Assembly: GCA_018992685.1 (NCBI GenBank)
Contig: JACVGT010000001.1
Span: 64,001 to 128,000 of the forward strand
Direction: 5' to 3'
Source: Theionarchaea archaeon
Lineage (GTDB): Archaea; Methanobacteriota_B; Thermococci; Methanofastidiosales; SZ-28-30
Length of the DNA: 64,000 nucleotides
Under the pieces are notes generated by a model. The model saw only the letters and a program-made list of their open reading frames with translations. It was not told where the DNA came from and did not search any database. Below are positions 16,665-22,238 of this stretch, one piece after another (positions within the stretch are counted from its first letter, which is position 1; each line of letters begins with the position of its first letter). A program made the position numbers and the translations under genes.

Positions 16665-17450
16665 TCATAGGTTGTACAGTGTGCGAACCTCCTGGTCGTG
16701 GATTCTGTCCACCATGTCCTCAGTCAGAGTGCCGGTGTTCACAAGCTTCAGGGTAGTCTTGGGAACAGTCTTAGGACCCAGGACTGCTCCAGGTCTTCGT
16801 GGATCATCAATGTAATCAGTCTCCATGAGGAATTCCATCCTGGAGGTTACAGCCTGTGTAACATTGGATTCAGTGGCCAGAATGGAAGGGATCATACTCT
16901 TGTACTCAGGATGAGGAGAAGCAAAGTGTTTGATGACCCGGGTACAGCCTAGCTCCTTGACCAATCTGTCAAGGGAAGCAATACCATCACTGTCCAATGA
17001 TTCAGTATGCAGTTGAATAGGACAGTCCAGCTCCCGGGATCGTTTTAAAGCTTGTATCATGTACTCGTGAGAAGCCTCATAGGTTTCAGCAGACACAGGA
17101 TAATGGGGCCTTCCAAACTCCCCCATGCCAACTACCTTCTTTTTCTCCACATAGGATTCCACAACATCGAGAGCCTGGTAGCACACGTCTTCTTTCCCTT
17201 TGTTATATAGTCGGTCAAATTCAGCAGGGTGCAGCCCCACCACAGCGTAGCATTCTACAATATTCCTCACTGCCTGGCACACGGCCAGCGTCTTTTCAAC
17301 CTGCTGTACAAATTCTTCTACACTCTGGGGAAAGCCGGGTTTCTGGACTAGAATGATTCGTCCTCCACCCGCTTTCTTGAACTGGTTGACAGCGTCAAGG
17401 AACAACCCTCTTCTGTCAAGGTGCATGTGGTTATCAGTTATTGCTGTCAT
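16665..17450 (-). CDS. TatD-family metal-dependent hydrolase (archaeal)
   Basis: DNHMH, GLHPAE, GEFGRPHY, QLHTE, ETDYIDDPRRPGAVLGP. Confidence 0.88.
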   Translation of the reverse strand: MTAITDNHMHLDRRGLFLDAVNQFKKAGGGRIILVQKPGFPQSVEEFVQQVEKTLAVCQAVRNIVECYAVVGLHPAEFDRLYNKGKEDVCYQALDVVESYVEKKKVVGMGEFGRPHYPVSAETYEASHEYMIQALKRSRELDCPIQLHTESLDSDGIASLDRLVKELGCTRVIKHFASPHPEYKSMIPSILATESNVTQAVTSRMEFLMETDYIDDPRRPGAVLGPKTVPKTTLKLVNTGTLTEDMVDRIHDQEVRTLYNL

Positions 17451-17465
17451 CGTGTCACTCCAACG

Positions 17466-18194
17466 TCAGCTTTCCTTCTCTTCCTCTCCCCCTCCCTTTT
17501 TTCCTCTTTCCCTTTCCTTTTCTTCCTCATTTTCTTCTCCTTCCAGATGGCAGCTCTCCTGTGTTCCCAGTAATATCTTGTCCAATACCAATTCTTCATC
17601 TACTTTGGTGCAGTAGCACCCATCTTTCAGGAGGGGAACACCCTGCACGGGGCACAGAGCTGAAAGCTCCATCATACTGTAGTTGAGCTCATATCCGCAG
17701 GCAACTCCAAGAGCTCCCGTTGGCCTGTCCTTTTTTGCAATGCGCTTCACAAAACTTCCCCCTGGTACAATGTACACCTTATAACCCTCTGCTTCCGCCC
17801 TTTTCTTCAGGTTTCCTATGACACACTGTCCACACATCTTGCATTGGACCCCATACTGGGTCAGAAGGGCGGGGCACGTTGGGTTGCGCAAACACTGGGG
17901 AAAAACCAGAATTCTTCCATCAATAGCTGATTGTCTGAATGCCTTCTCATATGTCCTGTTCCGTATTTCAATGCCTATTTCGTCAACATATCGCTCACTC
18001 AATCCCACCAACCGGATCAATTTTTTCAGAAGGAAATACAGGCTATCAATAACATACAGGACAAATCGGGGCAAGATCATAACCCCTTTTCGTAGTAAGA
18101 TGAATCCCAGCAGTAGTGAAATGGCAGCAGTGACAAAAAGGAAGACAAGAGAAAAAATGAGGAGTTTTCCTATGAATGCATACGGAATCTGCAT
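17466..18194 (-). CDS. DUF116 family membrane protein
   Basis: PQCLR...CKMCGQC...PGGS...GVAC..EL...GC pattern; N-terminal TM helix. Confidence 0.8.
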   Translation of the reverse strand: MQIPYAFIGKLLIFSLVFLFVTAAISLLLGFILLRKGVMILPRFVLYVIDSLYFLLKKLIRLVGLSERYVDEIGIEIRNRTYEKAFRQSAIDGRILVFPQCLRNPTCPALLTQYGVQCKMCGQCVIGNLKKRAEAEGYKVYIVPGGSFVKRIAKKDRPTGALGVACGYELNYSMMELSALCPVQGVPLLKDGCYCTKVDEELVLDKILLGTQESCHLEGEENEEEKERERGKKGGGEEEKES

Positions 18195-18198
18195 CCGA

Positions 18199-19152
18199 TC
18201 ACATTTTCACGCCAATCTTTCTTAACGCTCTCCTGACTTCGACAATTGCATTTTCCACATCTTCTCGAGTTTTTGCACCAGTACATACGATTTTTCCTGA
18301 ACCAAAGAGCAACAAGACCACCTTAGGTTTTTTCAACCGGTAGATCAATCCTGGAAACTGTTCAGGTTCGTACTCGCAGTTAGGAAGGCCAAAGACAATT
18401 GCATCTAGGTTTAATTCAACTCCCAGGTCTGCTGAAGCCACAATATTTTGAACGACAATTTCAGGTCCTCTGAACCAGACAAACACCCCTGCATCTTCTC
18501 CGGGAATGTGACGGGGTTCTCGAGCAGGATTTATAGAATCAAGTCCTGACAGAGTGGGCTGTTCTCTCAATTCAAAAGGAATTTGAGGAGGGTTGGCTTT
18601 ATTCTTACCTACAAAGACAGATTCAGGCTTATATGTGGAGTCTACCTTGATATCAAAGGTGATAACACCTTCAGCTTCAAAATTAATACCTCTTTGTCCC
18701 TCCAATGCAGATCCTGAAAAGGTGATAGTATTCTTATCGCTCTTAACCTTGTCTTTCTTGAGCTCTTTCTTTCTCTGCTCTTCATCTACATACTTCACAT
18801 TCTTGACGGACTGAGCGGTTATTGTCCCTTCAAATGCGTGTTCAGTGCCGTCGCCACTCCATCGCACCTGCCACATCGGATCAGGAATAGGAGTATCTTC
18901 TTTCTTGAGAAGATCAATAATCTTGTAGATGGCTCTCCTGGATTCCTCCGGTGACTTGGCTCCTGTGCACACCAGTTTCCCAGAACCAAACACAAGAGTG
19001 GCGGTCTTCGGATCATCGAGCCTCAAGACCAAGCCTGGAAACTGTTCAGGCTCGTATTCGATATCTTCTACAGCAGTTGCTATTCGTTCCAGATCAATAG
19101 TTTCATTCAGGGTGGCCGATGTAACAACGTTTTGTATTTTGACGTTCTCCAT
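18199..19152 (-). CDS. tbp: TATA-box binding protein with ~138-aa internal insertion
   Basis: Two TBP repeats (QNVV/QNIV...YEPEQFPGL...FGSGK.VCTGAK) separated by an unusual insert; 317 aa. Confidence 0.95.
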   Translation of the reverse strand: MENVKIQNVVTSATLNETIDLERIATAVEDIEYEPEQFPGLVLRLDDPKTATLVFGSGKLVCTGAKSPEESRRAIYKIIDLLKKEDTPIPDPMWQVRWSGDGTEHAFEGTITAQSVKNVKYVDEEQRKKELKKDKVKSDKNTITFSGSALEGQRGINFEAEGVITFDIKVDSTYKPESVFVGKNKANPPQIPFELREQPTLSGLDSINPAREPRHIPGEDAGVFVWFRGPEIVVQNIVASADLGVELNLDAIVFGLPNCEYEPEQFPGLIYRLKKPKVVLLLFGSGKIVCTGAKTREDVENAIVEVRRALRKIGVKM

Positions 19153-19404: not shown

Positions 19405-20301
19405 TTAGGTCGTTTCCTGTTCTTCCTTGGAGCCTTCAGAGACTTTTTCTTTCAGGAGTTCCCCGATTCCAGCAATACTTCCCAGGATTCCACTGGCTTC
19501 GTACGGCAGGAACACTTTTGAGGCTTTCCCGTCTGCAATCTTCTGGAGGGCCTCAAGATATTTGATTGCAATGAGGTCGTTGGTGGGGTTCCCCTTGTGG
19601 ATCGCACCGAAAACAGTATTAATGGCCTGGGCTTCTCCTTCTGCCACAGTCTTTTTCTGGTACTTGTCAGCATCTGCGACTCTCTTGATAGCCTCTGCCT
19701 GTCCTTCAGCATTCAATATTGCAGACTGCTTCTGACCTTCTGCCTCAAGAATCATGGCTCTCTTGTCTCGTTCTGCCTTCATCTGGCGGTGCATGGCTTC
19801 AGTGACATCTCTGGGGGGTTCAATCCGCTGCAGTTCTACTCTCGATACTCTAACACCCCATTTGTCAGTGGCATCATCGAGAATCTGCCTCAATTTCGTG
19901 TTGATGACTTCTCTGGACGTCAGTGATTCATCCAGAGACAGGTCACCCACTAGGTTCCTCAGGTTAGTCTGGGCTAACTTGGTAGCTGCTGTGTAAAAAT
20001 TGGCCACGTTATATGTGACCTTTACCGGGTCAGTGACCTCATGGTAAATGACTGCATCCACCTCTACCACCACGTTATCTTTGGTGATAACGCCTTGAGG
20101 TGGGACATCTACCACCTGTTCCCTCATGTCGACCTTTATTAGCCGTTCGACAAACGGAAAAACCAAGGTCAGTCCGCTGTCCACTGTCCGCTGATATCTG
20201 CCCAATCTTTCAATGAGTCCTTTTTGCCACGGCCGTATTATTTTGATGGCTGTTGCCGCAATTATGACCACTACTACGGCCAATACCACAAACTCTATCA
20301 T
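19405..20301 (-). CDS. SPFH/Band-7 (stomatin/QmcA-like) protein
   Basis: [39 protein letters not shown]. Confidence 0.92.
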
Positions 20302-20745
20302 TTACTCATCCTCCTTTATGGGGGCTACCACCAGATGGGTTCCATCCAGCCTGACAGCATGTACTTCCGTGCCCTCCGGTATGATTTCCCCTGTTTCGCT
20401 GTCTGCCCGCCATTCCTCCTTTCCTATCCTCACCATTCCCTCATTACTGATATTGTCCACGCGCACCAGGACAACACCTGTTTTTCCAACATATCGATCA
20501 GCCCCTACCCCGGGAGGCTGCTGCTTGGTGAAACGATCAGCAAATCGTCGGGACATTATCACCAGAATGCTGGCACTCACCAGGAAGATACCCCACTGCC
20601 AGGCTGGGCTGAAACCAAGATATGCTGTAATGCAGGCCAGTGCGGATCCCACGGCAAACCAAGACAAGAAAAATCCCGTGGTAAAAATTTCACCAATGGC
20701 GAAGATACCTGCAAGGATCAACCATAATAACCAGTTCTCAATCAT
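20302..20745 (-). CDS. NfeD-family partner protein
   Basis: TM N-terminus plus OB-fold GMVRIGKEEWRA...V..LDGTHLVV; adjacent to the SPFH gene. Confidence 0.88.
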   Translation of the reverse strand: MIENWLLWLILAGIFAIGEIFTTGFFLSWFAVGSALACITAYLGFSPAWQWGIFLVSASILVIMSRRFADRFTKQQPPGVGADRYVGKTGVVLVRVDNISNEGMVRIGKEEWRADSETGEIIPEGTEVHAVRLDGTHLVVAPIKEDE

Positions 20746-21192
20746 GACCTCACCTTTTCGCAAGAGACACCTTTATCACGCGCAGCTTGATCACTGTGTC
20801 CCCATGCAGGCTTTGCTACAGGGTTGCCCTCTGTGTGATCTTCACTGGGTGTCACCGCAAACCTGCCGGTGATGTACTCTAAAGGTATCACGTCACTACA
20901 TAGCTGGACTCGTATTTAAACATTTCCCACTTCTGTCCAGAGTCACTATCGAGACTACCTGCTACTGAGAGTATATCACTCAGTATGTACTTCCTTTTTG
21001 GCTCGTGCTCTATATCAGTATCTCCCTCTTATTATGTGCAGAAATTATGTGTATTCTTGCTGAGTCATGATACGTAAATAAGCACAAAATATGACATAAT
21101 AAATAATATTTTATTAATACAATTTTATTTTAAAAATCAAGTGAAAAATATTCTAACAAAAAGTTTATATATATCATATAGCAAATCTTGTT

Positions 21193-21483
21193 ATGAAAAA
21201 TCCATTCCTCAATGAAAAGAAAGCACTGATCATGATGAATTTGCTTGATGGAGCAGATTACATACGTCATATCGCAGAAAGCAGTAATACCATGTACCCT
21301 CACGCTCTACAGACACTAAAACTCCTGGAAAAGAGAGGATATGTTGATTCCAAGAAAGAAGGAAGAATACGGATGTATCAACTCACTGAAGAAGGGAAAA
21401 AGGTAGCTTCTCTGATACAGGAATTGTGGGATATGACCCAGGATCAGGGAGGTGGTCAGGTTAGTGCTGGGAGCCAGGAGTGA
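21193..21483 (+). CDS. Winged-helix transcriptional regulator
   Basis: LKLLEKRGYVDSKKEGRIRMYQLTEEGKK wHTH wing; AAAAAGTTTATATA BRE/TATA upstream with a near-leaderless start. Confidence 0.8.
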   Translation: MKNPFLNEKKALIMMNLLDGADYIRHIAESSNTMYPHALQTLKLLEKRGYVDSKKEGRIRMYQLTEEGKKVASLIQELWDMTQDQGGGQVSAGSQE

Positions 21484-22238
21484 GAAGAAAGAGCGTTTTG
21501 TTGTGCGGAAGATTCCTGAGGTTCCATGGCTGTAACCCAATTGCCAGCAACCTGAGCTCTCTTGCTGTGCAGAAATTCTATGAAACCTCGACTAATAGAA
21601 TTGCCAAGGTTAAAAGGCACGGTTCTGGATTGTATATGGAACTTCCGTACCTCCTGTGTGCAGAAATTTTTTATAGCATTGGCTTATCTAGGATAAAATA
21701 ACAGATGTAATATGAAGAATATATATTATAATATTTTATATAAAAAATTTTTTTGATATTATTTTATTACTAATATTTTGTTTATAAAATTTCATATATA
21801 CTATATTATATGATTTATTTTATTAATAAAGTAAAATAGGGATTGATATCCACGATCTAGAATCTTCGATTGATGTGCACCTTCCAGACAGATAGGTAGA
21901 GAGCAGAATACGCAACACTTCATGGAAGAATTTATAAGCAAAGGTACATATTAGTATCATACGTAGCTACTATCTCCGATAGAAAAACGAGTGGAAGTGC
22001 TGGTGTCATTACACGAGTGTATTGACAGAACCTGCAATCGTGCTGACATTTCACGTGAGGTCCACTGATGTGTCCTGTAACATGGAGCGCGCGTGAAAAG
22101 ATGTCATACCATTTCAGCAGAATCCAAGCCGAGAGGAGATAGAATACTTCCCAACAGCAGGGGAAACCCTCACACATCCCTGAAAGAACACCAGTACCTC
22201 AGAGAAATCGCAGTGATGGGCTGAAAGAGGTACGAATC

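Follow-up and report, generated by a model that had tools for sequence, protein, structure and literature searches.

The TATA-box-binding protein (TBP) encoded in the stretch of Theionarchaea archaeon DNA analysed here (hereafter the window: 64,000 nucleotides, positions 64,001 to 128,000 of contig JACVGT010000001.1, assembly GCA_018992685.1) carries a separate block of 138 residues between its two repeats, and this block probably represents a genuine domain insertion that is translated as part of the only TBP in one genus of Theionarchaea. In archaea and eukaryotes alike, few proteins are as conserved as TBP, whose two-lobed saddle usually bears additions at the termini only. No description of a TBP with an internal domain was found in full-text literature searches (supplementary files lying outside their scope), and the insert-bearing form is apparently undescribed so far.

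The open reading frame in question, at 18199..19152 on the reverse strand, encodes 317 residues, of which residues 92-229 (window 18466-18879) stand inside the inter-repeat linker. Pfam family PF00352 matches it twice, with a whole-protein E-value of 1.8e-64 and a score of 214 bits against a cut-off of 22.9, the best stretch being residues 232-312, and each repeat alone reached 108-111 bits in a TBP family search of the genome. In an alignment of 15 TBP sequences, F38, F55, F266, F283, E36/Q37, E264/Q265 and the Y-E-P-E-Q-F-P-G-L motifs were invariant; the conserved phenylalanine pairs and the E-P-E-Q-F-P-G-L motifs serve in DNA kinking and TFB contact. Residues 92-229 formed one block without counterpart in the aligned canonical archaeal TBPs: the 180-residue TBP of the sister genus (P0020, from genome G003) reads ...GEGTPIK-GEPEITVQN..., and the 317-residue protein ...KEDTPIPDP[138 residues]GPEIVVQN.... 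A canonical inter-repeat linker measures about 5-8 residues, from which the present protein departs with 138 residues extra relative to all canonical sequences aligned; by all sequence criteria tested except this short linker, it is classed as a TBP family member. The nearest solved structure is that of Pyrococcus woesei TBP (1PCZ; TFB-DNA complexes 1AIS and 1D3U), matched by the repeats of the 317-residue TBP at an E-value of 2.3e-52. The two repeats of 1PCZ are joined directly, the first ending at residue 93 and the second starting at residue 95, whereas here a separate 138-residue domain lies between them. Each of the 35 solved TBPs listed gave a match in two stretches, the linker being read from the 1PCZ alignment only. 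A preliminary description, made from the sequence alone, had proposed a TBP with both repeats intact and a domain of about 138 residues between them at 18466-18879; the two PF00352 matches and the single unmatched block bear this out, and those coordinates are exactly residues 92-229.

The insertion recurs in independently obtained sequences. Of 8000 relatives that were scored, the best 120 include 18 clusters, with 61 member sequences from NCBI, JGI, ENA and Logan, that comprise proteins of 314-317 residues with 86-91% identity and 99-100% query coverage, named in the public records as “TATA-box-binding protein” or “hypothetical protein” of Theionarchaea. The insert length is kept in 19 of 20 aligned orthologues, the remaining one showing a single-residue deletion. 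Both junctions, on whose support by reads the preliminary description had made its case depend, are crossed by contigs of public runs: the N-side junction (18879|18880) is spanned by Logan contigs in runs X1, X5, X6 and X7, and the C-side junction (18465|18466) by contigs in X7, a run from a different study than the one that may have produced the assembly. The stretch 18376-18657 was uncovered in X1, X5 and X6 among the contigs listed, which proves nothing. A low-depth joint from 18306 to 19040, present in X5 only (side 20), skips 733 nt, which is not a multiple of three; the joint is taken for cross-matching between the TBP repeats or another organism's tbp. Runs X5 and X6 also held a second contig variant over window 18667-19129, with 42 differences in 463 nt and the same junction between repeat 1 and the insert, which in X5 was deeper than the window-identical one (depth 274 against 11); a sister population bearing the same insertion co-occurs in these samples.

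These data make it extremely improbable that the block is an intein, an intron or an assembly chimera, despite its location at a domain boundary and a length of 138 residues that falls within the size range of mini-inteins. The insert starts P-M-W and ends F-R-G with Pro as the next residue, leaving no Cys, Ser or Thr at the splice positions and no terminal His-Asn; no intein or Hint family was matched in the 317-residue protein at E <= 1 in Pfam, and homology to a secreted repeat domain, described below, likewise speaks against an intein. The lack of intein hallmarks reported at the outset (no Cys/Ser start, no His-Asn) is thereby confirmed and extended by the following Pro and the missing Hint match. 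Mini-inteins of essential archaeal genes resemble the insert in being in frame, about 140 residues long, lodged in a conserved housekeeping host, and patchy in taxonomy, but they differ in having splice-junction residues and the Hint fold signature. A chimera is contradicted by the independent assemblies and bridging contigs that keep the junctions, as well as by a G+C content like that of the host gene (0.447 in the insert, 0.454 and 0.420 in the host gene, 0.467 in the genome). An RNA intron or junk DNA is excluded, as far as sequence allows, by selection at the protein level, and an intron of the bulge-helix-bulge type is countered indirectly by this selection and by the confident fold.

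The insert evolves faster than its host while remaining constrained. Across the 20 orthologues, 55 of its 138 positions are invariant, as compared with 81 of 87 in repeat 1 and 84 of 88 in repeat 2, and the mean pairwise identity is 0.778 for the insert versus 0.985 for the TBP repeats. Between the window's own genome (G000) and G001, the method of Nei and Gojobori gave 32 synonymous and 10 nonsynonymous differences in the insert, with a ratio of nonsynonymous to synonymous substitution rates (dN/dS) of 0.066 for this one genome pair; the corresponding figures were 26 and 0 in repeat 1 (dN/dS 0), and 35 and 3 in repeat 2 (dN/dS 0.014). A scan of metagenome contigs was dominated by canonical TBPs sharing Y-E-P-E-Q-F-P-G, its long matches being two adjacent tbp genes, and the 317-residue orthologues were not recovered there, which is why dN/dS rests on one genome pair. 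The insert is under strong purifying selection. It is nevertheless possible, albeit doubtful, that the domain is a tolerated passenger without a function of its own, sitting in a permissive loop and kept since its misfolding would cripple the sole TBP and precise deletions are rare. Such a passenger would fit the much faster evolution of the insert relative to the repeats, the outcome of the Pfam, NCBIfam and Foldseek searches, in which no partner, ligand site or family of known function was found, and the adjoining ends that the permuted cut described below would give, a property making insertion harmless. It fits less well with a dN/dS that is low for a mere spacer, with the retention of the domain, which is neither lost nor shortened in any of the 18 orthologue clusters, and with residues 195-202, which lie outside the core, are invariant in 20 of 20 orthologues and have no counterpart in the linkers of the homologues, which vary there.

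With regard to distribution, a whole-protein search of 41 related genomes returned a TBP match in 38, yet the insert region was matched only in three genomes of the window's genus, which marks the insertion as genus-specific. A TBP family search disclosed one locus each in G000 (91% complete), G001 (88%), G002 (84%) and the sister-genus genome G003 (91%, canonical), G001 holding a full insert-bearing gene and G002 a contig-end fragment that includes residues 205-317. The TBP of the sister genus is canonical at 180 residues and 86-89% identical to the repeats of the 317-residue protein. When a profile of the phase-shifted repeat unit was run against 133 genomes of the phylum, matches were confined to the three genus genomes and always lay inside tbp; a profile combining the insert with 94 homologous segments retrieved only TBP from the six-frame translation of the own genome (E-value 7e-31, partly a self-match), the next match being at 1.9. 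As far as seen, the altered protein appears to be the only TBP of these organisms. The survey for the insert and for a second canonical tbp that the preliminary description had envisaged hence yields an insert limited to one genus and a single TBP locus per genome. As a separate observation, 12 of 17 genomes of genus g4 hold, besides a normal TBP, open reading frames of 103-104 residues that weakly match one TBP repeat (E-values 8e-7 to 4e-4; for instance G014:C55:2909-3160 and G011:C20:7014-7262).

AlphaFold 2 (AF2) modelling of residues 89-232 with a 35-sequence alignment gave a mean predicted local distance difference test score (pLDDT) of 87.3 and a predicted TM-score (pTM) of 0.82. The model has ten beta strands and lacks any long helix, and the insert is thus confidently modelled as a beta-sandwich. 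Outside the C-terminal end, the lowest pLDDT was 60, in model positions 111-120, corresponding to residues 199-208. In a full-length AF2 model the insert core retained a pLDDT of 80-91, while the TBP part was poor (mean pLDDT 59), a consequence of an alignment restricted to nearly identical orthologues. Foldseek against the PDB gave nothing at E <= 0.001, the lowest E-value being 0.13 and the query-normalised TM-score not exceeding 0.36 among the rows shown. No Pfam or NCBIfam family matched the insert above cut-off (Pfam CshA_repeat, at an E-value of 0.086, fell under it), phmmer of the insert against PDB sequences returned 0 matches at E <= 10, and a feature search of the ESM Atlas with residues 90-231 returned no usable match. 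The beta-sandwich suggested beforehand therefore stands as a model, whereas the accompanying search for a structural relative produced no PDB match at E <= 0.001. A complex prediction of the sister-genus TBP core and the insert as separate chains scored 0.02, a value obtained without controls and neutral as evidence.

The relatives of the insert were instead located at the sequence level. A phmmer search with the insert against 1.84 billion cluster representatives yielded 80 matches at E <= 1e-3, of which 17 reached E <= 1e-10 and 4 reached E <= 1e-30. The TBP cluster is itself among them, leaving 79 and 16 others at the first two thresholds, with best E-values of 2.5e-38 to 1.1e-33. The homologues with the best E-values hold 3-7 copies of the domain each; over all 79, the number of copies per protein ranges from one to seven, and 34 have at least two. 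The domain is often C-terminal (within 12 residues of that end in 39 of the 79) or arranged in tandem arrays behind NHL propellers, and an N-terminal hydrophobic segment was noted in 54 of the 79 by a crude hydropathy rule. Among the 69 homologues of up to 1400 residues, the Pfam partners were NHL (8), FG-GAP/UnbV_ASPIC (4), beta-helix/NosD (3), PKD (2), the sulfatase C-terminal domain (2), and GH8, PhoD and CHRD (1 each), which are families typical of exported proteins. Most of the homologues, on these sequence features, look secreted. No Pfam family was found for the domain itself in sets of 10, 35 or 69 proteins, although sub-threshold IMP2_N matches covered the hairpin region (E <= 0.01 in 4 of 10 proteins, E <= 0.001 in 2 of 69), and NCBIfam returned nothing for the insert or nine homologues. 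A family of 79 cluster representatives without a Pfam or NCBIfam model is thereby delineated by sequence comparison. The insert shares the core homology of this secreted repeat family, but neither its native strand order nor its export context, the 317-residue TBP having no hydrophobic N-terminus. Four members (P0162, P0185, P0198 and P0199) are small, have a hydrophobic N-terminus and a single copy of the domain, and share an additional C-terminal motif rich in Trp, His and Arg, approximately [VY]-W-[VI]-P-G-H-x-x-x-x-G-x-[WF]-[IL]-[IP]-x-H-x-R.

The manner in which the insert relates to these repeats is revealed by the order of its strands. Single-domain homologues run in the order G-[KR]-P ... 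g-Y-x-I-W-x-D, a turn, W-H-[ILV]-R-W-[ST] ... D-G-x-D-F ... F-D-L-x-I-D-G ... V-F-V-G ... P-F, whereas the TBP insert opens at W-Q-V-R-W-S-G-D and closes with E-D-A-G-V-F-V-W-F-R-G. Among the nearest relatives (P0122-P0124, P0128 and P0135), which carry tandem arrays, the HMMER match extends from query position 2/3 to 135 with a period of about 135-140 residues, and thus crosses the linker and enters the D-A-G-Y-F-x-W strand of the following unit. When units are cut so as to run from W-H-x-R-W to D-A-G-Y-F-x-W-Q-D, they align end to end with the insert at 28-35% identity, and the invariant columns extend as far as its terminal portion (aligned positions P121, P125, G130 and W134). Judged from these alignments, the insert corresponds to exactly one array period in shifted phase, its native strand 1 now standing last. 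The reversed order in TBP is explained by a cut of the array in another phase, amounting to circular permutation. Since native strands 1 and 2 are only a few residues apart, the ends of the insert should adjoin, which is the geometry needed to bud from a loop of another protein. Two suggestions in the preliminary description, namely that the block resembled an extracellular module in which GxxxW precedes WxxRW and that the reversed order would imply circular permutation, are both vindicated: the homologues have the g-Y-x-I-W strand ahead of W-H-x-R-W, the insert aligns end to end with phase-shifted array units, and GVFVWFRG corresponds to the native first strand.

The apparently secreted repeats of P0122-P0124, P0128, P0135 and a Desulfobacterales protein (L016:909-3863) share W-H-x-R-W-S-G-D, D-G-x-D-F, F-D-L-x-I-D, V-x-V-G and I-P-F with the insert. 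They differ from it in that they begin with the g-Y-x-I-W strand and belong to proteins with a hydrophobic N-terminus and propellers or enzymes, while the TBP version has this strand last, resides in a cytoplasmic DNA-binding factor, and has a loop four residues longer. When one genome of each prokaryotic species was scanned for the motif, the close subfamily was recovered in two records, a Desulfobacterales metagenome-assembled genome and an “uncultured bacterium”. The protein of the former (L016:909-3863, reverse strand) has 984 residues, a hydrophobic N-terminus and two C-terminal copies; directly before these copies, a dockerin-like segment was noticed by eye (G-D-M-N-N-D-G-Q-L-N-L-K-D-A ... 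D-A-D-I-N-A-D-R-R-I-G). The repeat unit may well have been acquired horizontally from outside the phylum, and the donor was probably a bacterium, although the latter is a weak inference given that just two homologues are tied to named genome records. An identity of about 30-35% to the best relatives, together with a host-like composition, suggests that the acquisition is old.

A segment of 414 nt equal to one repeat period, comprising the core, the linker and the first strand of the next unit, stands in frame in the H2-to-S1' linker of tbp, and the following is hypothesised on its origin and working. The cut would have fallen in the short turn that separates native strands 1 and 2, so that both ends of the piece would lie side by side, allowing the domain to fold autonomously and to bud from the loop with the saddle undisturbed. 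In solved TBPs the H2-to-S1' linker is found on the side of the saddle near the pseudo-dyad, away from both the concave sheet that binds DNA and the C-terminal stirrup by which TFB is held. With intact repeats and a single locus, the TBP would still be expected to bind TATA boxes and TFB and to nucleate the pre-initiation complex, and the domain may supply a lineage-specific interaction surface. That this surface serves a protein partner, or packs on the transcription machinery via the invariant L-R-E-Q-P-T-L-S, is more likely than DNA contacts, if on thin grounds: the charged loop is poorly conserved, the insert is near neutral, and L-R-E-Q-P-T-L-S is invariant. The ligand-sensing or partner-binding surface proposed in the preliminary description receives no support from the present analysis, and its “basic patch” proved to be a poorly conserved loop of mixed charge (residues 121-140, net +2, 4 of 20 positions invariant) in an insert with a net charge of -1 overall.

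Two more specific roles deserve mention. It is rather unlikely, though the consequences would be far-reaching, that the domain binds a lineage-specific protein or small ligand and gates or redirects TBP-TFB-DNA assembly genome-wide via its rigid two-point attachment at the pseudo-dyad; the proposal draws on the secreted relatives, which presumably bind something outside the cell, and would, if true, place a global control point without known parallel in basal archaeal transcription. A regulatory lid, by which the domain would fold over its own DNA- or TFB-binding surface and gate promoter binding in a manner comparable to TAND and Mot1-type TBP inhibitors, is more unlikely still. The domain is indeed joined to the saddle by very little (P-D-P at one junction, no residue at the other), which should hold it close to the TBP core, but the insert, with its net charge of -1, is neither markedly acidic nor DNA-like, and no candidate is apparent for the release mechanism that a sole TBP would require if its default state were inhibited.

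Several considerations tell against a functional domain insertion in the sole TBP and should be given due weight. The contacts proposed for the insert are hypothetical, and where it would lie with respect to DNA and TFB is judged from solved TBPs, just as the putative pairing of the closing strand with residues 93-99 is judged from homology and predicted secondary structure. Purifying selection may merely keep a foldable passenger in an essential protein, and the seemingly basic loop is poorly conserved in a near-neutral insert. At 84-91% completeness, the genus genomes could conceal a second TBP or the donor gene, and a named genome record exists for two homologues only, one of which is labelled merely “uncultured bacterium”.

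Regarding known systems, other appendages of TBP, such as the archaeal C-terminal tails of P0089 and P0097, are likewise lineage-specific, but they are terminal and of low complexity, in contrast to an insert that is internal, folded and foreign; the N-terminal region of eukaryotic TBP is also a lineage-specific terminal addition. Ig-like sandwiches of cohesins, adhesins and pilins (9IFR CLIPPER, 2XDH and 5NRM, among others) are all-beta and similar in size and account for most of the best Foldseek matches, yet the match is not significant (best E-value 0.13) and amounts to a resemblance only; as alignment by Foldseek follows the order of the sequence, a true relation to cohesins or adhesins may be masked by the permutation. 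No dockerin (PF00404) was detected in the own genome.

A functional domain insertion would mean that a whole foreign domain has been kept under selection in the saddle of an apparently sole TBP through the diversification of a genus. It would constitute a natural experiment on how much load the pseudo-dyad face of TBP can bear while basal transcription works, and would show a tandem repeat to be a source of ready-made circularly permuted units whose ends meet, the geometry required for domain insertion. The case is therefore of interest for archaeal transcription and for domain evolution alike. The features of the gene are collected in Table 1.

Table 1. Features of the insert-bearing tbp gene, with positions in the window.
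Feature	Position	Strand	Basis or remark
tbp gene, 317 codons and stop	18199..19152	(-)	Sole TBP locus found in the genome
TBP repeat 1, residues 1-91, to the end of helix H2 and ...TPIPD	18880..19152	(-)	Pfam; 81/87 compared positions invariant in 20 orthologues
Insert, residues 92-229, 138 residues corresponding to one period of a secreted-protein beta-sandwich repeat	18466..18879	(-)	Alignment, phmmer, AF2, selection
Domain core, residues 93-196, W-Q-V-R-W ... I-P-F-E-L, common to all homologues	18565..18876	(-)	phmmer query 2-105 in most matches; AF2 pLDDT 80-97
Lys/Glu-rich loop, residues 121-140	18733..18792	(-)	Alignment: 4 residues longer than in nearest homologues; net charge +2; 4/20 positions invariant
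L-R-E-Q-P-T-L-S, residues 195-202, core exit into linker	18547..18570	(-)	Invariant in 20/20 orthologues
Closing strand G-V-F-V-W-F-R-G, residues 222-229	18466..18489	(-)	Homologous to first strand g-Y-x-I-W-x-D of the next array unit; strand predicted at 222-228 in both models
TBP repeat 2, residues 230-317	18202..18465	(-)	Pfam match 232-312; 84/88 positions invariant

The neighbours of tbp, judged from their translations only, are a Cys-rich membrane-anchored protein with a Glu/Gly/Lys-rich tail (17466-18194, reverse strand) and then a TatD-like hydrolase (16665-17450, reverse strand) downstream, and an SPFH/stomatin-like protein (19405-20301, reverse strand), preceded by an NfeD-like one (20302-20763, reverse strand), upstream. 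Nothing ties these genes to the insert, and the sister genus has another downstream gene, which is AIR-synthase-like (L006:3-758). The composition profile dips to a low G+C content of 0.26-0.35 at window 20850-21300 and 21600-22050, against about 0.47 for the genome.

Other unusual arrangements of TBP were encountered on metagenome contigs. Five TBP homologues of 272-289 residues (P0022-P0025 and P0028), on ENA/JGI metagenome contigs of 1.2-11.7 kb, contain three TBP repeats in one chain and could be either real triple-repeat TBPs or artefacts of assembly or duplication. Adjacent pairs of tbp genes were present on the contigs L062:4001-5115, L084:3519-4635 and L094:4001-5118, where a gene for 181 residues is followed, after 17-19 nt, by one for 183-184 residues; the upstream member of the pairs is divergent, reading for example Y-N-P-T-E-F-A-G-L instead of Y-E-P-E-Q-F-P-G-L.
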